IMG/VR virus record: IMGVR_UViG_3300032322_001673
Span: 1-58,958 of that record
DNA length: 58,958 nt
Direction: 5' to 3' (one strand)
Source of the DNA: a virus
Taxonomy: Duplodnaviria > Caudoviricetes
The position numbers and the translations under genes are program-made. Under the pieces are notes generated by a model, which was not told the origin of the DNA, did not search any database, and saw only the letters and a list, made by a program, of their open reading frames with translations. Shown here piece after piece: positions 1-11,983 of this stretch (its first letter is position 1; every line of letters begins with the position of its first letter).

Positions 1-62
1 GAATCGAACCAAGCACCCCCGCGTTATCAACACGGTGCTCTAACCGAATGAGCTAAGCAGGC
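1..62 (-). tRNA. tRNA-Ile(GAT), 3' end truncated by window edge
   Basis: Reverse complement GCCTGCT-TA-GCTCATTCGGTTAGAGC-A-CCGTG-TTGATAA-CGCGG-...-GGTTCGATTC; anticodon GAT. Confidence 0.9.
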
Positions 63-65
63 AAT

Positions 66-140
66 TGGCACACCGTAGGAGAATCGAACTCCTCTTACTG
101 CCGTGAAAGGGCAATGTCCTAACCGATAGACGAACGGTGC
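66..140 (-). tRNA. tRNA-Glu(TTC)
   Basis: Cloverleaf GCACCGT...; anticodon arm TTGCC-CTTTCAC-GGCAG; T-loop GTTCGATTC; encoded CCA. Confidence 0.95.
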
Positions 141-163
141 ATAAAACTAAAATTCGAAAACTA

Positions 164-217
164 ACAAGGTGCTGACTGTTACATGGTGCCGAAGTCATTA
201 CCACACCAAAACCTTGT
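164..217 (-). ncRNA. Candidate structured RNA in tRNA-operon leader
   Basis: Closing stem 164-170/211-217 (ACAAGGT/ACCTTGT) encloses two crossing 5-bp pairings (173-177/193-197 and 184-188/204-208). Confidence 0.35.
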
Positions 218-265
218 CAAACTCTTTTCAGAGACGGATTGTTCATTTCCGTTTTATTTTTAAAT

Positions 266-276
266 TGTTAAAGATA
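266..276 (-). promoter_or_regulatory. boxA-like antitermination element
   Basis: TATCTTTAACA just downstream of a sigma70 promoter; rrn boxA consensus is TGCTCTTTAACA. Confidence 0.5.
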
Positions 277-292
277 TTGCTACGATTCAGAC

Positions 293-321
293 ATTGTATC
301 TCGTTTTGGATTTAATGTCAA
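293..321 (-). promoter_or_regulatory. sigma70 promoter
   Basis: TTGACA-17 nt-TACAAT pointing into tRNA-Glu/Ile. Confidence 0.8.
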
Positions 322-479
322 ATGTTTTTAATAAAAGCCTGAAAATAATAAGTTGTCGGAATAGTAAGATATTCTCTTATCACGCTGACACCACCTTGTG
401 GTACCCAGCCCTCACTTATCAATATAGCAACTTGTTTATGAAATTCATCATGTGTTGCATTTATGACTTTATATTCCAT
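318..479 (-). CDS. Small DUF1737-like protein (53 aa, absent from ORF track)
   Basis: MEYKVINATHDEFHKQVAILISEGWVPQGGVSVIREYLTIPTTYYFQAFIKNI; GW.PQGG...Y.QA pattern; GAAAGAG upstream. Confidence 0.6.
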   Translation of the reverse strand: MEYKVINATHDEFHKQVAILISEGWVPQGGVSVIREYLTIPTTYYFQAFIKNI

Positions 480-497
480 AATACTCTTTCGTTGAAA

Positions 498-574
<77 letters not shown>

Positions 575-579
575 AAACT

Positions 580-653
580 TGGTGGAGGATGAGAGAATCG
601 AACTCTCACGAAGGCCTTGCAAAGGCCCCAGGCTCCCATTACATCAATCCCCC
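580..653 (-). tRNA. tRNA-Ala(TGC)
   Basis: Acceptor GGGGGAT/ATCCTCC with the G3:U70 Ala identity pair and A73; loop TTTGCAA; CCA; weak D-stem. Confidence 0.85.
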
Positions 654-654
654 A

Positions 655-807
655 TTAACTTGGTACTATTTTTGGTATATATGGAACTGCTCTAGGTCCA
701 CCATACAATTGTTCAAAAAGTTTTTTAGCCTCTTGCGGTGTATCCGCAAAAACTCTTTTCTTTTCTTCACCACTTGGTGTTCTTACAGTTGTTTCATATA
801 ACGGCAT
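655..807 (-). CDS. Small hypothetical protein (50 aa, MPLYETTVRTP...)
   Basis: AAGGAG Shine-Dalgarno before ATG at 807; the longer track start (858) lies inside tRNA-Arg. Confidence 0.7.
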   Translation of the reverse strand: MPLYETTVRTPSGEEKKRVFADTPQEAKKLFEQLYGGPRAVPYIPKIVPS

Positions 808-823
808 TACAACTCCTTTAAAC

Positions 824-900
824 TGGCCTGCCCGAGACGATTCGAACGTCCGACCCACAGCTTAGAAGGCTGTTGCTCTATCCGACTGAGCTACGGGCAG
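824..900 (-). tRNA. tRNA-Arg(TCT)
   Basis: CTGCCCG acceptor; arm ACAGC-CTTCTAA-GCTGT; GTTCGAATC; CCA. Confidence 0.95.
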
Positions 901-903
901 ATA

Positions 904-942
904 ATTAATTCACAGTATATCTCAACTGTGAATTAATGTCAA
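904..942 (-). promoter_or_regulatory. sigma70 promoter overlapped by a 13-bp perfect inverted repeat
   Basis: TTGACA(942-937)-17-TATACT(919-914); IR ATTAATTCACAGT 904-916 / ACTGTGAATTAAT 925-937. Confidence 0.75.
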
Positions 943-943
943 C

Positions 944-1504
944 CTAAGACTGTAGGATTCGGCTATGTTTGGGCACGCCGCTAATCAAATATTCCATTTG
1001 ATCTGCAAGAATGTTTCTATTTTGCAAAATCATGCTTTCAAAGTGATTAGGTTCATATGGTACGTACAATAGTTCCATACGACTTTCTTTTAATGTTTTA
1101 CTGTCTTTCTTTCCGTTGCATGGTTTACATGCAGTAACAACATTCATCCATGTGTTTACGCCACCTTTGCTTTTAGGTACAATGTGATCACGGCTTAGAT
1201 GATTACTATTAAGAAAATGTCCACCGCAGTATGCACAAACATGTCTATCACGACCGAACAATGTTTTGTTTGTTAGTGCTACTTTGCCATGCTTACTAGG
1301 ATCGAATCCATGTCCTTTAATTGCAATAATACTAGGAGTTTCAATGTAACTTAGGCTTCCATCATTCTGAATTCCCCCACGAAACTTTGCAACAACTTCA
1401 CCTAGCGACCATGCAACCATATCTTTCGCAAAATATGTAATTGCATTTTCATGCGAAATCCATTGTCTTGGGATTCCACCGATGTCCAACGCTAGTACTG
1501 ACAT
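944..1504 (-). CDS. HNH endonuclease
   Basis: RDRHVCAYCG...SRDHIVPKSKGG.NTW.NVVTACKPCNGKK; AAGGAG SD. Confidence 0.92.
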   Translation of the reverse strand: MSVLALDIGGIPRQWISHENAITYFAKDMVAWSLGEVVAKFRGGIQNDGSLSYIETPSIIAIKGHGFDPSKHGKVALTNKTLFGRDRHVCAYCGGHFLNSNHLSRDHIVPKSKGGVNTWMNVVTACKPCNGKKDSKTLKESRMELLYVPYEPNHFESMILQNRNILADQMEYLISGVPKHSRILQS

Positions 1505-1535
1505 GATTCTCTCCTTTTAAGTTAAGTGTATTTAG

Positions 1536-1780
1536 ACACACTCAATTAGGGGTCAGGCTTTCTACCGTCGAAGGGTAATGCCGAGTTCATCTAATAAATG
1601 TGTATGGTAAAGCAAACTTCAAATCTTATACGCCCGTGCCTTGTAAGCCGTTAAAATATAAGCAAATTTGCTTTATCATTCCCGTTTTACTCTGCTGTTA
1701 CCGCCAGCGTTTTCATCAGGGGCTCCGCCCGTTTTGTGCATGTTTATAGTGCGCACTAAGACCTCGTTTCTTACACACTG
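1536..1780 (-). ncRNA. Candidate multi-hairpin structured RNA(s)
   Basis: GC-richer noncoding stretch downstream of a promoter; long stems 1604-1619/1664-1679 and 1536-1549/1591-1603; hairpins GCTG-GCGGTAA-CAGC, GGG-CGGAG-CCC, GTGCG...TGCAC. Confidence 0.45.
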
Positions 1781-1788
1781 TAAACGTA

Positions 1789-1941
1789 TTAAGATTCTAA
1801 CACGTTGTCTGTTTTATTGTCAACCTTTTCAATATAACCATATTGCAACCTTAATCTTTCAAATTTTTCTCTTATCAATTTGTCAAGTTGTTCATCTGAT
1901 AACATATGGTCGTTGACAAACTTATCATTTTTGTAATTCAT
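1789..1941 (-). CDS. Small hypothetical protein (50 aa, absent from ORF track)
   Basis: GGAG SD then MNYKNDKFVNDHMLSDEQLDKLIREKFERLRLQYGYIEKVDNKTDNVLES; first gene after the attenuator. Confidence 0.6.
   Translation of the reverse strand: MNYKNDKFVNDHMLSDEQLDKLIREKFERLRLQYGYIEKVDNKTDNVLES
1794..1823 (-). promoter_or_regulatory. sigma70 promoter (extended -10)
   Basis: TTGACA-18-TAGAAT with TGn before the -10. Confidence 0.7.
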
Positions 1942-1960
1942 TTGTTGTTCTCCATATAAC

Positions 1961-1995
1961 AAAAAACCCTGAGACTTTTTGAGTTCTCAGGGTTT
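1961..1995 (-). terminator. Rho-independent terminator of the attenuator
   Basis: AAACCCTGAGA-loop-TCTCAGGGTTT running into a U tract on the minus strand. Confidence 0.85.
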
Positions 1996-2033
1996 AGATA
2001 ATCCTACTATGCAACTACACTTTACCTAAACCC
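1990..2033 (-). promoter_or_regulatory. Antiterminator hairpin
   Basis: GGGTTTAGGTAA (2033-2022) pairs with TTATCTAAACCC (2001-1990), 12 bp with one G-U, overlapping the terminator 5' arm. Confidence 0.7.
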
Positions 2034-2144
2034 CAAATCCTCAATAATATTGCGGTCACTTGTTAAGGCATAAAACCCTACAGGCATCCACACCATTAGT
2101 GACGGCTGCTTTTTGGTTATATGTATACAAGTAAAGTTTCTCAT
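2022..2144 (-). CDS. Leader peptide (40 aa) containing all 20 amino acids
   Basis: MRNFTCIHITKKQPSLMVWMPVGFYALTSDRNIIEDLGFR*, located between a consensus promoter and the terminator. Confidence 0.65.
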   Translation of the reverse strand: MRNFTCIHITKKQPSLMVWMPVGFYALTSDRNIIEDLGFR

Positions 2145-2173
2145 AGTAATTTTATTTAGTCCTGATTCAAAAT

Positions 2174-2202
2174 ATTATACTTTTTAATGCAATAAATGTC
2201 AA
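2174..2202 (-). promoter_or_regulatory. Perfect-consensus sigma70 promoter
   Basis: TTGACA-17-TATAAT; CTAAATA late-type motif also present near 2153-2159. Confidence 0.88.
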
Positions 2203-2204
2203 TT

Positions 2205-2702
2205 TTAAATTTGCCCAGTCATTTGTTTCAAAGTTGACAAGATTGAAGTTACCGAACTTACAGTATCTAAATCATCTTCCTTAATGTACTGTATAACATC
2301 ATTATCGTCAACAATACAGAAGGTTCTTATTACCCTATCTTTGTCAGTATTTGCTTCTAACTTATGTGCCAAACTATATTGTTCTTGCGAATTGTCAGTA
2401 AACAGATGTAATGTAGGGGTTTCAACCTTACTTATGATTGACCAGGCCATGTTACTAAACTGCAGTTCCGTAGAACCTACAAATAACATGACTCCATTCT
2501 TTGCTAATTGTTCAGATATTTTATTAAATCCTACTAGTTCCTCTGGAAACACGTATGAAAAGTTATTTGGATAGAATACAAATATTTTCCAAACGCCTTC
2601 AAACGTCTTTTCGTTTACTAATTTTCTTCCATTTGGAGTAGGTTCATTTGGTTTAATACAATTGATAGCAAATGATCCTAACTTATCACCTATAATTTTC
2701 AT
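2205..2702 (-). CDS. Peroxiredoxin (AhpC)-like protein lacking the peroxidatic Cys
   Basis: Aligns by eye with 3655-4188: FYPNNFSYVFPEE vs YYPKDFTFVCPTE; RTFCIVDDNDVIQ vs RATFIVDPDNVIQ. Confidence 0.7.
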   Translation of the reverse strand: MKIIGDKLGSFAINCIKPNEPTPNGRKLVNEKTFEGVWKIFVFYPNNFSYVFPEELVGFNKISEQLAKNGVMLFVGSTELQFSNMAWSIISKVETPTLHLFTDNSQEQYSLAHKLEANTDKDRVIRTFCIVDDNDVIQYIKEDDLDTVSSVTSILSTLKQMTGQI

Positions 2703-2722
2703 TTATCATTTTCCTGTTATAT

Positions 2723-2742
2723 AAAAAGCCCCTTACGGGGCT
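2723..2742 (-). terminator. Rho-independent terminator after ahpD
   Basis: AGCCCC-GTAA-GGGGCT followed by TTTT. Confidence 0.8.
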
Positions 2743-2744
2743 GA

Positions 2745-3263
2745 TTAATTACTTAACACTCTTGCTACTGACGTTATAACTGCTGCTATTCGTCCAATGT
2801 CACGTAATTGTTCTACCGTGTATCCTTCTTTTTTAAGTGTTTCATAATGTGCTTTCACACAAAAATGGCACTTGCCTACAATACTTGCTGCTAAACTATA
2901 TGCTTCAAACCTTGCTTTGGTTGTGCCACCATGACTTGAAATTGCATTCATACGCAATTGTGCTGGTAAGCCTTTAAGATTTTCGTCATCAGCCATTTCA
3001 ACAAATGGATACCAAATGTTGTTTTGTGCCATCAAACTTGCTGCTGTTAATGCTGCGTCAGCCTCTTTACGGTCAGCTAATTGACTATGAACCCATGTCC
3101 AAAATTTGCTATTACCAGTTGCAAACGCTGCTGCAAGTGCCACTGCCTCTGCTTCTTCAACTGGTAATGTGCTACGCTTGATTACTGCATCTATGTTTAA
3201 TTTTGTATCCTTAGCATATTCAGGAATACTTTGTTCTTTTAATGCGTCTACCCATGCTGTCAT
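2745..3263 (-). CDS. ahpD: Alkyl hydroperoxide reductase AhpD
   Basis: YAKDTKLN, MAQNNIWY, LRMN, SLAASIVGKCHFCVKAH (CxxC). Confidence 0.9.
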   Translation of the reverse strand: MTAWVDALKEQSIPEYAKDTKLNIDAVIKRSTLPVEEAEAVALAAAFATGNSKFWTWVHSQLADRKEADAALTAASLMAQNNIWYPFVEMADDENLKGLPAQLRMNAISSHGGTTKARFEAYSLAASIVGKCHFCVKAHYETLKKEGYTVEQLRDIGRIAAVITSVARVLSN

Positions 3264-3655
3264 TTTGTTAATGCTCCTAGTTGTTTATATCCTTTATATG
3301 TAGGATGTACCTTATCTGTAGATAGTTCAGGAATAATAACGAAAGTATCACCATAGTGCCTAGCAATCTTTTTTACTATTTCTTGTTTCTCTGGTTTAAT
3401 CGCAGGAACAATCCAAAACACACGATCAGAATTAACAAAGCTTCTTAATGCTACTAATTCTATTTCGGTATTTAAATGTTTAAAATCATTACTACCTAAA
3501 CTAATAATTGTAGCTTTAGCAGGTCTGATTTTTTTAACGTATGCATCATTCCAGTCTTTGCTGTTGATACCGCTTTGAGCATAAGCCACACATTCAGTGC
3601 GTATTTGGCTTACGCCCTTTGCTATACTATCTCCTAAGATAAGGCACTCTAACAT
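3260..3655 (-). CDS. SGNH/GDSL hydrolase-like protein
   Basis: Blocks GDSIA, LGSND, DKVHPT..GY. Confidence 0.8.
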   Translation of the reverse strand: MLECLILGDSIAKGVSQIRTECVAYAQSGINSKDWNDAYVKKIRPAKATIISLGSNDFKHLNTEIELVALRSFVNSDRVFWIVPAIKPEKQEIVKKIARHYGDTFVIIPELSTDKVHPTYKGYKQLGALTK

Positions 3656-4188
3656 TATAGTGTCTCGCCACCAACTGTGCGATTACATGCACACAATTCA
3701 CCTGTTTGTAGTGCATCCAATACACGCAATGTTTCTTCTGGGCTACGACCAACGTTTAGATTGTTGACTGTAACATGTTGAATAACATTGTCTGGGTCAA
3801 CGATGAATGTAGCACGAAGTGCTGCACCTGCTGGAGCAAAGAAAATACCAAGCTGATTGATCAAACTTGATTCGCCACGCTGCGTATCTGCAAATTGCAC
3901 GTGAGTAATCTTAGCAAGATCAGGGTGAGCTTTTTGCCATGCAAGTTTACAGAACTCGTTGTCTGTAGAGCCTGTTAGCAAAACAGCATCACGGTCTTTG
4001 AAATCATTTGCCAACTTGTCATAGGCAACGATTTCAGTTGGACATACGAATGTGAAATCTTTTGGGTAGTAAACTATAACTTTCCATTTACCTTCGAAAC
4101 TTGTGTCAGTAATATCAAAAAACTGATCACTGCCTGGGTTGACGCCTGTTACTGCGAACTTCTCAATTTTATCACCTACTGTTTTCAT
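3655..4188 (-). CDS. ahpC: Peroxiredoxin AhpC
   Basis: YPKDFTFVCPTE peroxidatic motif; VGRSPEETLRVLDALQTGELC. Confidence 0.95.
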   Translation of the reverse strand: MKTVGDKIEKFAVTGVNPGSDQFFDITDTSFEGKWKVIVYYPKDFTFVCPTEIVAYDKLANDFKDRDAVLLTGSTDNEFCKLAWQKAHPDLAKITHVQFADTQRGESSLINQLGIFFAPAGAALRATFIVDPDNVIQHVTVNNLNVGRSPEETLRVLDALQTGELCACNRTVGGETL

Positions 4189-4298
4189 TTGTGTCTCCTT
4201 ATGTGTGAATGAAATTATAAAAATATTGCATATTATAATCTAATTATTTAGCTTTTTTAATTTGTTTGGGTAAATTAATTTCACATTAAATATGTATT

Positions 4299-5210
4299 AT
4301 GAATACCTTTGCATTAAATCCAAACTTATATGATGTTGTTTTTCTAAGTTATGATGAACCAAACGCTGAAGAAAACTATCAACATTTACTTTCACTAAAA
4401 CCAAAAGCAAAAAGAATTGATGGAGTTAAGGGCAGTGATGCTGCGCATAAGGCCGTCGCGGATATAGTTAAGACAGATAGAGTTATCATTGTAGATGGTG
4501 ACAATAAAATTGCTACAAACTTTTTTCGCTTTAATGTTTACACCAAACCACATTTTGATTGGACTGATTACGTTTTTAGTTACAGCAGTTTTAATCCTGT
4601 AAACAACAATTGCTATGGTAATGGTGGTATTAAGTGCTGGCCTGTGCATTTATTAAAGGAAATGCGTACACATGAAGCAGGTGATAGTGTTGATTTTCAG
4701 CTTGACAAGTACCTAGAACTAAACAGAATCGGCAGTGAAACAATTATAAATCAAAGTCCACAACAAGCATTTCGTGCAGGCTTTAGAGATGGTATGAAGT
4801 TACTAGATAGCGGAGAAAAAGATTTTGAAAAAATGGATTGGCGCAACCGTGAAAGACTTTATAATTGGATGCATTTAGGCAGTGATGTTAAGAATGGATT
4901 ATGGGCAATATATGGTGCAAGACTAGGAGCATTTTTGTTGCTTAGAGGGTATGATATAAGAGTACTAAATGACTTTAGCCAATTAGATGAAATATTTGAA
5001 GTCTATAGCAGAATAGCAACAGCCAATCTACAATTAGAATGCGACAAGTTGGGGAAAACATTTAATAGCAAATATGTGCATGATGTTTTAAGTAGTGACG
5101 AAAGTATGGAAATCAAAAAGAACTATATTCCACCAAAACGCAGTGCAGAAGAATTTTTAGCAGTTACAAGTAAGGAAGATATAGAACAATTTTATGCAAA
5201 TACCATTTGA
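4299..5210 (+). CDS. Glycosyltransferase-like (GT-A) phage protein
   Basis: YDVVFLSYDEPNA, IIVDGDN (DxD), YGNGGIK, QAFRAGFR. Confidence 0.5.
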   Translation: MNTFALNPNLYDVVFLSYDEPNAEENYQHLLSLKPKAKRIDGVKGSDAAHKAVADIVKTDRVIIVDGDNKIATNFFRFNVYTKPHFDWTDYVFSYSSFNPVNNNCYGNGGIKCWPVHLLKEMRTHEAGDSVDFQLDKYLELNRIGSETIINQSPQQAFRAGFRDGMKLLDSGEKDFEKMDWRNRERLYNWMHLGSDVKNGLWAIYGARLGAFLLLRGYDIRVLNDFSQLDEIFEVYSRIATANLQLECDKLGKTFNSKYVHDVLSSDESMEIKKNYIPPKRSAEEFLAVTSKEDIEQFYANTI

Positions 5211-6186
5211 GAAAATAGTAAGGTTTGGTCAGCACACAATGCTGGAACATCCTCTCTTTTCCGTGAGTTGGATACTAGGCAGATTCTGTAATTATAAATG
5301 TAGTTATTGTTGGCCATACGCAAATACTGACACTCCCGATCATCAATCACTGGATGTTTACAAACACGCAATAGATCAAATTAAATTGCAAGCAAGGCAA
5401 AATAAATTTACTGATTTTCACTGGTCGTTTAGTGGCGGAGAGCCAACCGCTTATAAACATTTACATGAATTAATTAAACATTTAGAAGATGGCATAACAC
5501 CATATCAAAGCATTCACATGACTACCAATTTAAGTCCTAGTAAGAAATGGTGGGCTAAGTGGTGTAGTAACACCGACCTTCTTCAACGTAGATCAATAAC
5601 TGCAAGTTATCATAGTGAATTTGCAAATGAGAATGAGTTTGCAGAAAAATGTTTATTCTTAATGGGTGAGAATGTTTATGTGACTATTAATCAAGTTATG
5701 GTTCCTAATCAGTTCTATGAGTTATATGAAAGATGTCAGCGTTTTCATGATAAAGGGATCAATGTTACACTAAAGCCACAAAGCAATGAAAGTGCAAATG
5801 CAATTGTAGATGGATATACACCTGACATGATTGAGATAATGCAGAACGGATTCCCGCAAAAAGTTAATGAACAAGAATTATACCAAATACGATTATACGA
5901 TTCTGATAATGTAGAATATAAATTTGATCAAGCCGAAAGATTTAATGCTTTTGGTTTCAACCAATTCACCAATTGGCATTGCAATAGCGGCTATCAAAGT
6001 GTTATAATAAGAGGTTCGGAGGTGAAGCGTGGTTACAGTTGCAGCGAAAGACATTTAGGCACTTTGCAGCAAGGGTTTAGTTTATTTACCAAACCTACAA
6101 TGTGCATCACAAACCGATGCGTGAGTAGTGCTGACAGTAAAATACCAAAAGAAAAATGTCACATTGATAGTTTTAATAATGAATAA
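5194..6186 (+). CDS. Radical SAM protein
   Basis: CNYKCSYC, SGGEPT, C-terminal Cys cluster. Confidence 0.9.
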   Translation: MQIPFEKIVRFGQHTMLEHPLFSVSWILGRFCNYKCSYCWPYANTDTPDHQSLDVYKHAIDQIKLQARQNKFTDFHWSFSGGEPTAYKHLHELIKHLEDGITPYQSIHMTTNLSPSKKWWAKWCSNTDLLQRRSITASYHSEFANENEFAEKCLFLMGENVYVTINQVMVPNQFYELYERCQRFHDKGINVTLKPQSNESANAIVDGYTPDMIEIMQNGFPQKVNEQELYQIRLYDSDNVEYKFDQAERFNAFGFNQFTNWHCNSGYQSVIIRGSEVKRGYSCSERHLGTLQQGFSLFTKPTMCITNRCVSSADSKIPKEKCHIDSFNNE

Positions 6187-7564
6187 AATACCAACATACA
6201 TCAAACTTATTGAAGAAAAGACAGGGTCACCTACCTTTTGCGTTTTACCATGGATTCATTTAGCAACCAGACCCAATGGTGATGCAAGACTGTGTTGCGG
6301 TAGTAATGCTAGTCAAGCAACGAAAGGAATACTAGATGCTGGTCTAGTTAGAAAAGAAAATGGAGAAGTTGCTAACTTCGGAAAAGACACACTACAACAA
6401 GCCTTTAATAATGTTTACATGCGTGATGTAAGGAAAACAATGCTAGAAGGCAAAATACCTTCTAGTTGCACTAAGTGTTTTGAAGAAGAACAAAATGGCA
6501 TTCTAAGTAAAAGAATTTGGGAAATGTATGAATGGGATAAAGATGGAATAGATTTTAAACAACTTATTGCTGACACAAAAGAAGATGGTGAAGTTCCTAC
6601 TGCTATACGATACTTTGACATTAGATTAGGACACACCTGTAATTTAAAGTGCGTTATGTGTACACCGCACGACAGTTCAAAGTGGGTACAAGATCATAAG
6701 AAAATTATTCCTATTACAAAAAGCGAGACCGTGTTGCAACAGATAGCATGGGATCAATCCACATTTGACAATACCTGGTATGAGAAATCAGAGTTTTGGG
6801 AAGAAGTGTTTGAACAGATTCCTAATATACAACAAATGTATTTTGCAGGTGGCGAACCTTTAATGATTAAGGAACATCATAAATTCCTAGAGGAAATCAT
6901 TAAGCGAGGGTATGAAAAACAAATAACACTAAGATATAACAGTAACGGTATATTTGTAGATGATTATATCATTGACATGTGGAGTAAATTTAAAAAGGTT
7001 AAATTTGCATTCAGTATTGATGCAGTCAATGAAAGAAATCACTACATAAGATATCCTGCAGAGTGGGATATTATTGTTAAAAATTTACATAAATTAGACA
7101 ACACACCTGACAACATACATATAGGAATCGCATGTGCTGTGCAAATTTTTAATATCAAGCATATCATAGATTTCGCTAAATGGAAAATACAACAAAACTT
7201 TAAGAAAATAAACAAATACCAAGTAGAAAACTACCTAGTGGGCGGCGGTATTTTGAACATGCATATGTTGTATATACCAACCTTCTTAAGTGCAAGAATG
7301 TTACCCGAAGAAGATAAAAAAGAATTAAGAAATCAATTTATAGAATTTAAAAATTGGTTATGGGATAACTATACTCAGGATGATGTATTTTGGAATTCTA
7401 GTCCATATGGTTGGCAAAGATGGGAAGGTATATTAAAATTTGTAGAGGCAGAAGATCATAGCCACTTGTTGCCAGACTTTAAGGAATATGTTTCTAATTT
7501 AGACGTAATTAGAGGCACAAATTCAAAACAAATATTTCCAGAATTAGCCAGTTTACTAAAATGA
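6179..7564 (+). CDS. Radical SAM protein with N-terminal SPASM/twitch-like domain
   Basis: FCVLPWIH...LCC...CTKC then CNLKCVMC, AGGEPL; start moved to ATG 6179, overlapping the previous stop. Confidence 0.9.
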   Translation: MNKIPTYIKLIEEKTGSPTFCVLPWIHLATRPNGDARLCCGSNASQATKGILDAGLVRKENGEVANFGKDTLQQAFNNVYMRDVRKTMLEGKIPSSCTKCFEEEQNGILSKRIWEMYEWDKDGIDFKQLIADTKEDGEVPTAIRYFDIRLGHTCNLKCVMCTPHDSSKWVQDHKKIIPITKSETVLQQIAWDQSTFDNTWYEKSEFWEEVFEQIPNIQQMYFAGGEPLMIKEHHKFLEEIIKRGYEKQITLRYNSNGIFVDDYIIDMWSKFKKVKFAFSIDAVNERNHYIRYPAEWDIIVKNLHKLDNTPDNIHIGIACAVQIFNIKHIIDFAKWKIQQNFKKINKYQVENYLVGGGILNMHMLYIPTFLSARMLPEEDKKELRNQFIEFKNWLWDNYTQDDVFWNSSPYGWQRWEGILKFVEAEDHSHLLPDFKEYVSNLDVIRGTNSKQIFPELASLLK

Positions 7565-8514
7565 AAATTATAAAAATAAAAAATTTGTCAACAGACCATC
7601 TCAGTGTAGAATTTGTTTTAGGTAATGTTTGTAACTATAAATGTCACTACTGCTTTAAGGGATGCAATGAGGGAACTCATAGATGGCCGAATCACGACAT
7701 TGTGCTAAAAAACATGAAGTCACTTTTTTCTTACTATCGATCTCAAGGAAAAACAAATATTGATTTAAAAATCATAGGAGGGGAAACAACACTTTGGCCC
7801 TATTTAGAACATTTTGTTAAAGATATAAAACAAGTAGCAAATGTTTTTGTTAGAGTCAGTACCAATGCTAGTAGAACAATTGACTATTGGAATGATAAGT
7901 CACATTTATTTGATGAAATTACAATTAGTGTTCATAATGAGTTTGCAAATTTAAATCACATTATTAAAGTTGCAGATTTAATTTATAGTAAGAAACAAAG
8001 TAATCTTTATGTGTTTGTTTTGATGGATCCATACAATTGGAAAAAATCGATAGAATGCTTTGATTACTTACATTCAAATAGTGAAGGATGGTTTTTATCT
8101 CCCCAACCAGTATTGTTTGATAATGTTACAACCTATTCACAAGAACAGACAGAATATCTTACTACAGTTAAAAAAAGAGTATGTGACGATGTAAAGAAAG
8201 TAAAGCCAAAATATGCAATGATGTTCACGCAAGACGGAACTGTAGAACCCTATGACTATAAAAAAATTGTTCTTAATAAAGCTAACAATTTTTACGGTTA
8301 TAAATGCAATATTGGAATAGACAGAATTTATATTGACATTGAAGGTGAGATACGAGGAGCTTGCGGTGAACAATTGTTTGATGGAAATTTAAATATAAAA
8401 GATCAAAATTTTGAAGAAAAGATAAAGTTATATAAAAATCTTGAACCTGTCATATGTAGTAAGAATGTTTGTGGGTGCGGTGCTGAAATAATGTTAGATA
8501 AAGAATTAATATGA
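7561..8514 (+). CDS. Radical SAM protein
   Basis: CNYKCHYC, GGETT, C-terminal C...C...CSKNVCGC. Confidence 0.9.
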   Translation: MKIIKIKNLSTDHLSVEFVLGNVCNYKCHYCFKGCNEGTHRWPNHDIVLKNMKSLFSYYRSQGKTNIDLKIIGGETTLWPYLEHFVKDIKQVANVFVRVSTNASRTIDYWNDKSHLFDEITISVHNEFANLNHIIKVADLIYSKKQSNLYVFVLMDPYNWKKSIECFDYLHSNSEGWFLSPQPVLFDNVTTYSQEQTEYLTTVKKRVCDDVKKVKPKYAMMFTQDGTVEPYDYKKIVLNKANNFYGYKCNIGIDRIYIDIEGEIRGACGEQLFDGNLNIKDQNFEEKIKLYKNLEPVICSKNVCGCGAEIMLDKELI

Positions 8515-9104
8515 AAATTGACTTAGAACATATAATGTTTTGGATGGATGCTATACGTAATAGCGAGGATCCAAAACGTACATTAGAAAGTTTTTGGAAG
8601 GGTCAACTACGTAGCAAAGAATGGCTTATAAAAGAATTAGGAGTTTTTGTAGGTAAACCAGTATGCATCGACATTTTTGGTGGTTGGAACGGAGTATTGG
8701 CTAGTATGCTATTTCATGCTCCTTATCCAATTAAATCAATTCGTAGTATTGACATAGACCCAAAATGTGAAGAAATAGCAAACACAATGAACAAGATAGA
8801 GTTAATGAAGGGTGTTTTTCATGCAGTAACCGCGGACATGTGCAATTTACGTAGTGATGCGGATATTGCTATTAATACTAGTTGCGAACACATAACTCAA
8901 GATCAATATGAACAATGGCTGACTTGTTTGCCACAAAATAGTTTACTTGTTCTACAAAGTAACAATTATAAAATTTATGAACATATTAGAATAAGCGAAG
9001 GATTAGATGACTTTGTAGAGCAATCACAATTATCAAAAGTTTTATATTGTGATAAATTAGACTTGCCTTTATATGACAGGTACATGATCATAGGATACAA
9101 ATAA
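8511..9104 (+). CDS. Class I SAM-dependent methyltransferase
   Basis: IDIFGGWNG motif I, SIDIDP, INTSCEH. Confidence 0.75.
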   Translation: MKIDLEHIMFWMDAIRNSEDPKRTLESFWKGQLRSKEWLIKELGVFVGKPVCIDIFGGWNGVLASMLFHAPYPIKSIRSIDIDPKCEEIANTMNKIELMKGVFHAVTADMCNLRSDADIAINTSCEHITQDQYEQWLTCLPQNSLLVLQSNNYKIYEHIRISEGLDDFVEQSQLSKVLYCDKLDLPLYDRYMIIGYK

Positions 9105-10204
9105 TGTTTAAATTTTCAGAATTAAAATCTATACATTTAGAAATAAGCACACGCTGTCAAGCAAGCTGTCCTATGTGCCCAAGGAAATATCACGGTGGTG
9201 TTGAGAATACAAATCTTAAAATAGCAGATTGGACTATCCAAGAATTTAAACATATATTTACGGATGAACTATTGAATCAACTAGATATGATTTACTTTTG
9301 TGGTAATTATGGTGATCCAATTATGAATGATGATTTGATATCCATGTGCCAATACATTAAAGACAAAAAACCCAATATGCAAGTTAGAATACATACCAAT
9401 GGTGGCGCACGTTCAACAAAATGGTGGGTTGATTTATTTAACAGTCTTAATGAAAATCACTTAATTTATTTTGGAATAGACGGTCTAGAAGATACAAATC
9501 ACATTTATAGAATTGGAGTTAATTTTGATATTACGATTCGCAATGCACAAGCATTTATAGATGCGGGAGGCAAAGCTGAATGGGTTTTTATTAAATTTAA
9601 ACACAACGAACATCAAACAGAGTTAGCAGAACAATGTAGTAAAGACATGGGTTTTGTGAGTTTTACCATAAAGAACACTACTAGATTTATTGGGGAAAAT
9701 AGATATAGTGTAGTAGATGAAAGCGGAAACATTTTATATTATCTTGAACCACCAACTGATAATCAAGTTGTGTTTATATCACCTGAACAAATAAAAAGAT
9801 CAGGTGAAATTATTAACAGTTCTAAAATAAGTTGTTATGTGCAAAATTTAAAAGAAATTTATATTGATGCACACAAAAATGTTTTTCCTTGCTGTTTTTT
9901 AGCAAGTGCCCCTTACCACTATCAACAGAAAGAAGAACCTACTGATCCATTTAGAAAAATGATTTACAATTTTCATTATAAGGTATTATCCCAATATCAT
10001 AATTTAGTAGAAACGTTGGGGAGTATAGAAAATATACACGCTATGAATAAACCAATCAAAGATATCATTAGTAGCACAGAATGGCAAACAGTTTGGGATC
10101 ATCACTGGAACGTTGAAAAATTATATACCTGTGCTAGGGTATGTGGGAAAACAGGTAACTCTAAACCTAAAGATCAATTTGTTAAGAGAGTAAAAAATGA
10201 TTGA
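9104..10204 (+). CDS. Radical SAM/SPASM-type protein
   Basis: CQASCPMC, CGNYGDP, VFPCC, CARVC. Confidence 0.9.
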   Translation: MFKFSELKSIHLEISTRCQASCPMCPRKYHGGVENTNLKIADWTIQEFKHIFTDELLNQLDMIYFCGNYGDPIMNDDLISMCQYIKDKKPNMQVRIHTNGGARSTKWWVDLFNSLNENHLIYFGIDGLEDTNHIYRIGVNFDITIRNAQAFIDAGGKAEWVFIKFKHNEHQTELAEQCSKDMGFVSFTIKNTTRFIGENRYSVVDESGNILYYLEPPTDNQVVFISPEQIKRSGEIINSSKISCYVQNLKEIYIDAHKNVFPCCFLASAPYHYQQKEEPTDPFRKMIYNFHYKVLSQYHNLVETLGSIENIHAMNKPIKDIISSTEWQTVWDHHWNVEKLYTCARVCGKTGNSKPKDQFVKRVKND

Positions 10205-11270
10205 TTTTCACACCATAAAAAATGATGGCTCAAACTCATTTGTGATTACTTGGGATTTAGGTAGGCGTTGTAATTTTGATTGTAGTTATTGCCCAGTGCA
10301 TAGACATGATAATTTCAGTAGTCACGCTAGTTTGATAGAGTTAAAAAACACATGTAATTTCTTATTTGAGTATATTTCATTAATATCGCAACATCGACAT
10401 AACAAAGATTTTTATATTAGTTTTACAGGAGGCGAACCTACTGTTAATCCCAATTTTATAAAGTTTGCGGAGCATTTAAATAATGAATGGAAAAATAAGT
10501 TTGATAAAGATATCAAAATAAAATTAGATGTGACTTCAAATGGTGCGATGAGCGAAAAAATAGCTACAAGTATTATTAGAAATTTTGATCATGTAACAAT
10601 AAGTTACCATGCTGAATCAGATGAAATAACAAAAAAGAATGTAATAGATAGGATATTACAATTACATCAAGGTGAAGTAGACATGAAAGTAAATGTTATG
10701 ATGCATGCCAAACATTTTGATGAGTGTGTAAAGGTATGTAACATTTTAAAAGAAAATAATGTTAAGTATATACCTAGACCAATTGGTGAAGATCCTGACA
10801 GTATGCTTGCCACCGCTCACAAATATTCTGATGAACAAAAACAATGGTACAGTGACTTTTTTAACACACCAATTACACCCACCACAAGACCTTGTTGCGG
10901 TGGAAGAAGTTTTACATTATGCAACAATGAAGAATCGATAGAAACGAAGGTAATAGGATTTAGAAATTTTAAAGATTGGTATTGTAGTGTAAATTGGTAT
11001 TTCTTACATGTTGAACAGCAAACAGATTTAGTCTATCACCATCAAACCTGTCAGGCCAATTTCAACGGGGAACGTGGGAGTATCGGAACCATAACAAATT
11101 ATGCTGATATTATCAGTAATCTAAAAAACAACCTTAACAATAAACAAATGCCCACTATTGTTTGCCCTAATAAATTATGCGGATGCGGGTTATGTATTCC
11201 TAAAAGCAAACACAAAGATCAATATTTAGTAAACATAAACAATACAGTTAATCAATCCATATTATCATGA
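10197..11270 (+). CDS. Radical SAM protein
   Basis: CNFDCSYC, TGGEPT, CPNKLCGCGLC. Confidence 0.9.
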   Translation: MIDFHTIKNDGSNSFVITWDLGRRCNFDCSYCPVHRHDNFSSHASLIELKNTCNFLFEYISLISQHRHNKDFYISFTGGEPTVNPNFIKFAEHLNNEWKNKFDKDIKIKLDVTSNGAMSEKIATSIIRNFDHVTISYHAESDEITKKNVIDRILQLHQGEVDMKVNVMMHAKHFDECVKVCNILKENNVKYIPRPIGEDPDSMLATAHKYSDEQKQWYSDFFNTPITPTTRPCCGGRSFTLCNNEESIETKVIGFRNFKDWYCSVNWYFLHVEQQTDLVYHHQTCQANFNGERGSIGTITNYADIISNLKNNLNNKQMPTIVCPNKLCGCGLCIPKSKHKDQYLVNINNTVNQSILS

Positions 11271-11983
11271 AAATTAACGCACAAGATATATTACAAGAAA
11301 CATATGATGTTTTCATTAAAGCTGGATTTAAAAAAATACTTGATAACAGTATTACAATATCTGAAATAGAGTATTATAAATTACATACAGCTTTTTTGGT
11401 TCCTACTTCAATTAAAATTGATACTGAATTATTTGTGGAACAAGTTAAAGAATTTAAATTCCAACAATGGGGAAAAAATCACACTCATTTGCCTAGATAC
11501 GGATTGGCATTAGTAAATAAAAGCGGAGAACTAATTGAGGATGATCCAATTAATGGTAGTTTAATGACATGGAATAAAGATCATCCTAATGATCCTATTA
11601 TTGAAACTGATTGTTTGACGCCTACACCAGTAATGAAGATATCATCCCTAGAGCCATTAAGGATATTTGACGATTACTGGACTAGAAGTAATATACTTAA
11701 ATGGAATAATGGGGCTATGTTTTTACCACATATTGATACAGTTGTACCAAGCATGTGGCTTAGGTTATGGATGAGTACTGAAGGGCTAACGGTTAGATAT
11801 TACGATGAGACATCGGAAGAATTAAAAGAAATAGAGTACGAACCCGGACGAGTTTATTTAATAGATACTTCAAAAATTCATGATGCATACTCAACAAATG
11901 ATAATGTTTACCAATTGTTTTTAAGTGTACTTACGACTGCGGATTATTTAATTTCTTCTGTAATTCTTCCCACGCAAATCTAA
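11267..11983 (+). CDS. Fe(II)/2OG oxygenase-like (AspH-type cupin)
   Basis: PHID (HxD) and distal GRVYLIDTSKIH. Confidence 0.6.
   Translation: MKINAQDILQETYDVFIKAGFKKILDNSITISEIEYYKLHTAFLVPTSIKIDTELFVEQVKEFKFQQWGKNHTHLPRYGLALVNKSGELIEDDPINGSLMTWNKDHPNDPIIETDCLTPTPVMKISSLEPLRIFDDYWTRSNILKWNNGAMFLPHIDTVVPSMWLRLWMSTEGLTVRYYDETSEELKEIEYEPGRVYLIDTSKIHDAYSTNDNVYQLFLSVLTTADYLISSVILPTQI

Follow-up and report, generated by a model that had tools for sequence, protein, structure and literature searches.

A leader open reading frame that keeps all 20 amino acids and overlaps a putative antiterminator at the 5' edge of tRNA arrays in large phages

The DNA considered here (hereafter the window) is the whole of the IMG/VR virus record IMGVR_UViG_3300032322_001673 (Duplodnaviria; Caudoviricetes), a single viral contig of 58,958 bp. 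Its completeness is estimated at about 12%, and it must therefore come from a very large phage; the element in question belongs to a giant lake-water phage with many relatives. This element is a leader unit made up of a promoter (P1), a short open reading frame (ORF) and an intrinsic terminator, and it is followed by a small ORF (X), a conserved non-coding RNA region and an array of tRNA genes. The whole unit, its downstream genes and the tRNAs lie on the minus strand, and all coordinates are those of the window (Table 1). P1 begins two bases past the stop codon of an AhpC-like gene, and its transcript is predicted to start, probably, near 2168–2166. A preliminary description, drawn from the window alone, had reported a perfect sigma70 promoter, a 40-codon ORF with all 20 amino acids and 33 codons, and a strong intrinsic terminator, and had read them as an attenuator. 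The three parts are present at the positions given in the table. The 33 distinct sense codons include AGA, AGG, ATA and CTA, and the terminator hairpin has a predicted energy of about -15.5 kcal/mol; a consensus terminator scanner with a loop limit of 8 missed this hairpin with its 10-nt loop.

Table 1. Positions of the leader unit and of the features downstream of it in the window.
Feature	Position	Strand	Details
Promoter P1	2202-2174 (TTGACA 2202-2197, 17 nt, TATAAT 2179-2174)	-	12/12 match to sigma70 consensus
Motif M, CAGGACTAAATAAA	2164-2151	-	nearly invariant alignment columns
Leader ORF, 40 codons + TAA (2024-2022)	2144-2022	-	peptide MRNFTCIHITKKQPSLMVWMPVGFYALTSDRNIIEDLGFR
R2, antiterminator 5' strand, TTGGGGTTTAGGTAA	2036-2022	-	last four codons + stop
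Spacer from stop to terminator, 26 nt	GCATAGTAG region 2011-2003	-	pairs with start-codon region TTACTATG 2149-2142 in the predicted closed form
R3, antiterminator 3' strand	2001-1987	-	flank TTATCT + first 9 bases of terminator 5' arm
Intrinsic terminator, 11-bp stem	1995-1961	-	5' arm AAACCCTGAGA 1995-1985; loop 1984-1975 (10 nt)
Terminator 3' side	1974-1961	-	3' arm TCTCAGGGTTT 1974-1964; T6 run 1966-1961
Small ORF X, 50 aa	1941-1789	-	motif H-x-L-S/T-x-E-Q; ATG 20 nt past T run
Second sigma70-type promoter	1823-1794	-	11/12; at ORF X 3' end, ahead of structured RNA
Conserved non-coding RNA region	1790-1510	-	between leader unit and tRNAs
HNH endonuclease gene	1504-944	-	Pfam HNH_5, E 2.5e-15
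Third consensus promoter	942-914	-	ahead of first tRNA gene
tRNA Arg-TCT	900-824	-	first of array
tRNA Ala-TGC	653-580	-	
tRNA Pro-TGG	574-498	-	
Further consensus promoter	321	-	inside tRNA array
tRNA Glu-TTC	140-66	-	
Cut tRNA	62-1	-	array continues past contig end

Taken singly, the composition of the leader peptide is no proof of anything, because holding all 20 amino acids is only mildly unusual for one peptide of 40 residues. In the window, 2 of the 61 ORFs of 38–42 aa hold the full set, the leader ORF counted among them; in related loci 79 of 3339 other distinct ORFs of 40–59 aa (2.4%) do so, and random draws from the family's own composition contain all 20 residues in 3.6% of cases. 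Relatives were found in IMG/VR via the neighbouring AhpC-like and HNH proteins and via the 5' motif of the element, the motif search matching at least 119 stretches. Searched with the DNA motif, the 209 loci and the window gave 149 elements with 85 distinct peptides of 40–70 aa, of which 75 contain 20 residue types and 10 contain 19. A profile built from 35 peptides and run against 5.8 billion proteins returned 147 clusters, every one unnamed or 'hypothetical protein'. Among the 120 clusters listed, 116 were new, with 20 residue types in 90, 19 in 24 and 18 in two; nine of the 26 proteins that fall short are gene calls of 37–38 aa from an internal Met, with the N-terminal Cys cut off. When distinct peptides of 40–60 aa are pooled (n = 181), 159 have 20 residue types, 21 have 19 and one has 18. 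These peptides are highly divergent, many pairs falling below 35% identity (mean column identity 35%), that of the window being 16–40% identical to most others. As judged from the peptide comparisons, conservation of the full set across the family exceeds chance; the comparison with the chance rate, called for in the preliminary description, sets the family apart and shows the single ORF to be barely unusual.

The rare residues are mostly present in a single copy (Cys in 79, Trp in 81 and His in 75 of the 85 peptides). Such single copies could stem from homology alone, whereas the relocation of a residue after loss of its usual site could not. Cys is found elsewhere in 27 of the 36 peptides that lost its usual site, and as an extra copy in 3 of the 145 that kept it. 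The corresponding counts are 6/6 and 7/175 for Trp, 20/23 and 30/158 for His, 64/69 and 26/112 for Asp, and 21/21 and 58/160 for Tyr, and the replacement sites are scattered along the peptide. The relocation of rare residues therefore points to selection for the presence of each amino acid, and only translation 'sees' the presence of every amino acid. Codon usage was considered as independent evidence and set aside: distinct codons make up a share of 0.78 in the leaders against 0.62–0.70 expected, and the rare codons CGC, GCC, GGG, CGG and CCG are enriched 3–5 fold, which is partly explained by G+C-rich helices.

Several lines of evidence indicate that the leader ORF is under coding selection. 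An ORF running from the conserved ATG to a stop within 80 codons is present in all 149 recorded elements, a count in which motif hits without such a stop were skipped. Across 144 pairs of equal length and 75–97% identity, the ratio of non-synonymous to synonymous substitution rates (dN/dS) is 0.38, differences at codon positions 1, 2 and 3 number 648, 701 and 1037, and no pair is free of stops in either of the other two frames. Length changes among relatives preserve the frame, and a (P)-T-S-I-R-G motif is kept through synonymous changes.

The end of this ORF is also one strand of a predicted alternative RNA structure. As the preliminary description had claimed, the last codons GGG TTT AGG TAA pair over 12 bp with the 5' arm region of the terminator, their partner being TTATCTAAACCC (2001–1990, one G-U pair included); the predicted fold lengthens this pairing to 15 bp, between 2036–2022 (R2) and 2001–1987 (R3), and takes 8–9 of the 11 bases of the terminator 5' arm. 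Because the stop-codon helix overlaps the terminator arm, the two structures are mutually exclusive, and when both states were folded each was predicted to form as proposed. R2 lies inside the ORF in all members, and its core, the last four residues, is never needed for the all-20 property (159 of 159). The stem of the terminator starts a median of 27 nt (21–31) past the stop in short forms and 25 nt (21–27) in forms that are 10–13 codons longer; with the distance held at 21–31 nt, a ribosome at the stop would mask R2 and not the terminator.

The arrangement is retained across the family. Of 97 distinct elements, 84 carry a hairpin with an energy of -8 kcal/mol or lower and a run of four T or more behind it. 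In 30 groups with different C-termini, the ORF end has its pairing partner in the flank plus the greater part of the terminator 5' arm, and in predicted folds the antiterminator (-14 to -30 kcal/mol, against -12.5 to -22 kcal/mol for the terminator) sequesters a mean of 8.1 of 12 arm bases. In folds where only the spacer and the final 36 nt of the ORF were free to pair, the start of the terminator arm paired with the ORF end in 86 of 86 sequences. Shuffled sequences pair often as well: when the whole arm is counted, 79% of shuffles also pair at least five bases, and under a stricter criterion (at least five of the first six arm bases paired) the native figure is 44/86 against 28% of shuffles. 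For this reason only the energy difference is informative. Antiterminator hairpins have a mean energy z-score of -3.9 against dinucleotide shuffles, with 65 of 86 beating all 30 shuffles, and in a partner-swap test native R2:R3 duplexes average -13.7 kcal/mol compared with -10.7 for foreign partners. Motif M, too, matches the invariant parts of R3 in the terminator flank and arm: M:R3 duplexes average -8.7 kcal/mol, with a z of -4.2 relative to shuffled M and a z under -1.64 in 97% of 86 sequences.

Covariation, scored on 90 sequences with a structure taken from one member of the alignment, points the same way. Overall, 89.9% of cells are paired compared with 83.1% in shuffles and 35–52% in slid-register controls, and 138 cells carry double changes compared with 44.7 in shuffles; for both measures none of 500 shuffles reaches the observed value. 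The antiterminator column pair 226–281 is occupied by AU (38), UA (22), GC (8) and GU (7), and the pair 227–280 by GC (41), CG (22) and AU (20). The terminator helix (helix 3) is 97.4% paired, with four pairs changed on both sides. Compensated pairings include UAGGUAA/UUAUCUA in PGTR forms, GGAAUAA/UUAUUUU in RGTE forms and GGGG(A)UUUCAUA/UAUGAAACCCC in the forms 10–13 codons longer. In these longer forms the stop codon occupies the loop of an additional small hairpin, which shows covariation of its own (GUUAC/GUAAC versus GAUAC/GUAUC). The upper GGGG:CCCC part of the antiterminator, where bulges put the clades out of register with one another, was judged by per-sequence folds, partner swap and shuffles. 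The pairing of the ORF end with the terminator arm, expected of relatives, is thus kept, with compensatory changes, and divergent relatives keep their codon diversity as well; the sequence-level checks named in the preliminary description have all turned out in favour of its reading. Taken together, these predictions argue for an alternative antiterminator that would exclude the terminator and whose upstream strand could be masked by a translating ribosome.

The genomic surroundings of the element are equally constant. Among 106 distinct contexts, 88 have a downstream tRNA within the available DNA; in all 88 the tRNA genes are on the same strand only, the first one 166–1997 nt past the stop, and no tRNA gene lies within 5 kb upstream of the element in any of the 106. 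The element therefore marks the 5' edge of the tRNA array, in line with its placement upstream of such arrays in the preliminary description. The arrays of loci L190 and L209 comprise 40 and 35 tRNAs and cover all 20 amino acids; in these two loci the phage's own tRNAs read 88–91% of the leader codons, the arrays elsewhere being cut. The first tRNA is at +1122 in the window versus +166 to +650 in most relatives, and the HNH gene is an insertion of the window's clade between the RNA region and the first tRNA. In 76 of 88 contexts the 120 nt ahead of the element contain a promoter that matches at least 10 of 12 positions. An ORF X homologue directly follows the terminator in 38 of 95 loci (strict motif). 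Its ATG lies inside the spacer of the second promoter in 23 of these loci, and 15 have no promoter there at all, so that a promoter past the terminator able to yield a transcript with the X start codon was found in 0 of 38. Lacking a promoter of its own, X depends on readthrough, and from the layout of these signals it appears to be the gene most directly dependent on it.

We are highly confident that a putatively translated leader, an antiterminator and a terminator form a conserved unit tied to phage tRNA arrays. The reading that we favour, and consider likely, is that the unit is a ribosome-mediated attenuator in which completed translation leads to termination and a delay in decoding to readthrough, with the complete amino-acid set as the design point. 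Host RNA polymerase would start at P1 and transcribe the leader. If no ribosome occupies R2 as R3 emerges, the R2:R3 antiterminator would form and the polymerase would run on into gene X, the conserved RNA and the tRNA array. A ribosome that finishes the leader and sits on or near the stop would mask R2, the terminator would form 21–31 nt further on and the transcript would end; the released RNA would then fold shut, its start codon and motif M both base-paired. Any scarce or missing charged tRNA, or a general block of translation, would delay the ribosome and give more readthrough. The leader would thus probably let the phage read the decoding ability of its host and transcribe on when decoding falters.

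A more elaborate version, which we put forward tentatively and hold to be possible only, is that of a gauge of whole decoding capacity with two sensors of ribosome occupancy, M and R2, driving a feedback loop in which the phage runs its own tRNA supply. M and R2 are both complementary to the terminator arm, and termination would need ribosomes that both load and finish. The trigger would be a fall of any one of the 20 charged tRNAs, by starvation or by tRNA-cleaving defences of the host; the response would consist of protein X and the structured RNA, together with added transcription of tRNAs that make up a nearly complete set. It would restore decoding, after which the switch would shut again.

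A number of observations weigh against the attenuator. A consensus promoter lies between the terminator and the first tRNA in 65 of 88 contexts, usually 20–35 nt past the terminator, and the window has further ones at 942 and 321 besides that at 1823, as the preliminary description had itself cautioned; with such promoters in place, readthrough can only add to tRNA transcription. The only Shine-Dalgarno-like AGGA lies inside motif M, 15 nt ahead of the ATG, a distance about which the same description had warned. The constraint on P-T-S-I-R-G exceeds what a pure codon gauge needs, and the motif may be a programmed pause or serve a second function. In the pooled set, 22 of 181 peptides are short of one or two residues, and 13 of 97 elements fall below the terminator criterion, some being cut by contig ends and several having no more than two or three T. 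In many peptides the one Glu, Asp or Gln stands 6–10 residues from the C-terminal end, where a stalled ribosome may already cover part of R2. Fisher p-values for the relocations, 1e-8 to 1e-21, ignore shared descent and are not true probabilities, and the covariation figures rest on a structure derived from a single member of the alignment. The folds are predictions, and that the leader is translated in vivo, which way the switch works and what it senses are inferred. Since the terminator is predicted to form at equilibrium (see below), readthrough of the untranslated RNA by default would rest on the order of folding. Seven metatranscriptome runs cover a small share of the window, and four were examined, as contigs. 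Two contigs from two RNA libraries and studies, identical to the window at 1853–2007 and 1850–2025, run through the termination point and reach more than 31 nt beyond it in either direction, which is a weak hint of readthrough transcripts; contigs of this kind show neither ends nor strand, and carried-over DNA may contribute to them. One contig extends to 2184, upstream of the predicted transcript start. Parts of 1500–2750 free of contigs, such as the AhpC-like gene, were left out of the evidence.

The coding signal could also be that of an independent small-protein gene, whose 40–58 aa product works in trans, with the translation apparatus or a host defence as a conceivable target, while the RNA helices merely stabilise the mRNA or tune its translation. 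We regard this as unlikely, even though a dN/dS of 0.38, the conservation of P-T-S-I-R-G at the amino-acid level and the 147 gene-called protein clusters are what such a gene would give, and its own promoter (76/88), its terminator and the fresh promoter past the terminator (65/88) would make it a self-contained transcription unit. A protein of this kind does not account for all 20 residues being kept while Cys, Trp, His and Asp shift to unrelated positions, and we know of no protein-level reason for keeping one copy of each residue while these four move. Nor does it account for the mutually exclusive stop-codon helix and terminator arm, for a stop-to-terminator distance fixed across length classes, or for the need of gene X for readthrough. 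No Pfam match was found for the window peptide, and no PHROG family for the leader peptides of the window and two related loci; ESM Atlas, Pfam and PHROGs gave no match for the leader peptide or protein X. Among GenBank phage records neither blastn of the element nor tblastn of a family peptide gave a match, and tblastn of the neighbouring AhpC-like protein gave distant matches only. The two explanations are not mutually exclusive; attenuators are known whose peptide and RNA have functions in trans as well, as is reported for rnTrpL/peTrpL (PMC6614838, PMC7968998).

The polarity of the attenuator might also be the reverse of that proposed, with translation of the leader needed for readthrough, so that the tRNA block is transcribed more when translation works; the untranslated RNA would be a closed hairpin plus terminator, opened by ribosomes that free R2 behind them. 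The closed form is where this idea finds its footing: in full-length minimum-free-energy folds the terminator is formed in 75 of 86 sequences and the AUG fully paired in 67. In the window, whose full transcript folds with a z of -3.0, the 5' codons pair with part of R2, and in the long forms some 18 nt separate R2 from the stop, so that R2 could refold behind a terminating ribosome. R2 is inside every ORF, however, and a finishing ribosome must therefore melt the antiterminator last. In addition, before the 3' arm exists and even with no ribosome, folding predicts a paired 5' arm in 70 of 86 sequences, the partner being R2 in 47 of them and M in 23, and a free arm in the other 16, and the start:spacer helix (helix 1) is the weakest helix, at 78.7% paired. 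Reverse polarity would also leave no role for the need of all 20 amino acids beyond general coupling, and we consider it improbable. Under the polarity that we favour, the untranslated nascent RNA would read through by default and the released RNA would shut itself. A non-coding RNA element with an incidental ORF, whether riboswitch-like, a protein-bound leader or a small RNA, is very improbable: it would fit the strong nucleotide conservation of motif M and the terminator region, the window transcript's fold z and the poor Shine-Dalgarno spacing, and is opposed by the same-ATG ORF in 149 of 149 recorded elements (stop-less motif hits skipped), the lack of stop-free pairs in other frames, the third-position bias, the dN/dS of 0.38, the in-frame length changes and the lack of any Rfam family, T-box included.

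Leader-peptide attenuators are known from amino-acid operons (trpL, hisL, leuL, pheL (PMC3082878) and the multivalent thrL and ilvL), and the textbook attenuator senses a single amino acid, or three at the most. Like these attenuators of the trp/his class, the phage element has a short leader ORF with an intrinsic terminator, an antiterminator at the ORF end that shares bases of the terminator 5' arm, so that ribosome position would decide, and a stop codon at a fixed short distance before the terminator. Unlike that class, the phage leader has no run of control codons for one amino acid; it keeps one copy or more of every one of the 20 residues, and just a single copy of most rare ones, and its peptide has a conserved motif. 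The genes that follow it encode a small protein, a structured RNA and the tRNA array of a phage; they do not form a biosynthetic operon. No clear pause or anti-antiterminator hairpin that would make an untranslated leader terminate is evident, the candidates for such a 1:2 structure being the start:spacer helix and the closed long hairpin described above. T-boxes work without translation, by direct binding of one uncharged tRNA. The phage element is like them in that the supply of charged tRNA would be linked to the choice between terminator and antiterminator, and unlike them in that no Rfam T-box match was found in positions 1–5000 of the window or in six related loci.

The leaders of antibiotic-inducible resistance genes are attenuators with an upstream ORF (uORF) that respond to drug-stalled ribosomes. 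The mycobacterial whiB7 uORF is reported to sense translation stress, with alanine as the amino acid concerned (PMC10274678, 10.1101/2025.10.10.681568). The phage leader resembles such stress uORFs in that slowed ribosomes would favour the antiterminator and switch on downstream genes, and in that the signal would be the state of translation and not one metabolite. The stress uORFs differ in answering drug-stalled ribosomes or one amino acid (alanine for whiB7), and in being cellular and not placed ahead of tRNA genes. We are not aware of any stress uORF that keeps a complete amino-acid set, nor of an earlier regulatory link between translation status and virus-carried tRNA genes. A full-text literature search, with subscription journals and supplementary files outside its scope, returned no description of an all-20 leader. 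A leader kept complete for all 20 would be a new sensing logic, in which one short message reports on the whole decoding apparatus. It has a bearing on the reason for tRNA arrays in large phages, be it codon usage, the replacement of degraded host tRNAs or counter-defence, and a compact element with sigma70-type signals could serve as a natural reporter of charged-tRNA supply.

Some variation was seen in and around the leader unit. In most clades other than that of the window P1 is about 87 nt upstream of motif M, and in L167, L113, L045, L050 and others a small hairpin and then a T run, absent from the window, lie between the two, some 20–60 nt ahead of M, and may be a further control point. 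In L165 (a 70-aa form), L097, L186 and L196 (peptide ending ...SFREGWDG) the C-terminal part is in another frame or extended and the hairpin is followed only by TTT and other bases; these variants may be decaying or differently wired.

Protein X is about 48–58 aa long and of the type D-W-F-x-x-H-V-L-T-K-E-Q-L-A-Q-L-I. In many relatives the -35 box of the promoter that follows is interwoven with the Shine-Dalgarno sequence and ATG of X, the ATG lying exactly 10 nt after the start of TTGACA. X is followed by the conserved non-coding region of about 250–300 nt (about 280 in the window), which carries the motifs AACGAGG ... GGGCGG ... GGCGGTAAC and was found in 51 of 90 loci (strict motif). A fuller pattern reads AACGAGG ... 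GGGCGG ... AUGAA ... GGCGGUAAC ... GUAAGAC, and the first tRNA after it is often tRNA-Gln. The same RNA is present downstream of the leader in L167, L093, L100, L106, L123, L137, L147 and L201. Rfam scans of positions 1–5000 of the window (E up to 1) and of six related loci (E up to 0.1) gave no family for the leader or the RNA region, only tRNAs and two sub-threshold chance matches. A reading as transfer-messenger-like RNA was dropped, as ARAGORN finds none. Also dropped was the idea that the leader peptide is a modified-peptide precursor belonging to the radical S-adenosylmethionine operon at 4299–11983, because the conserved neighbour across clades is the tRNA array and not that operon.

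Upstream of the leader, at 4188–2205 on the minus strand, four genes resemble a peroxide-detoxifying set, an unusual cargo for a phage: an AhpC/TSA-like gene, a CMD/AhpD-like gene, a GDSL-like fragment and a second AhpC/TSA protein. Elsewhere in the window, a single ORF of 7937 aa extends over 33745–57558, also on the minus strand.

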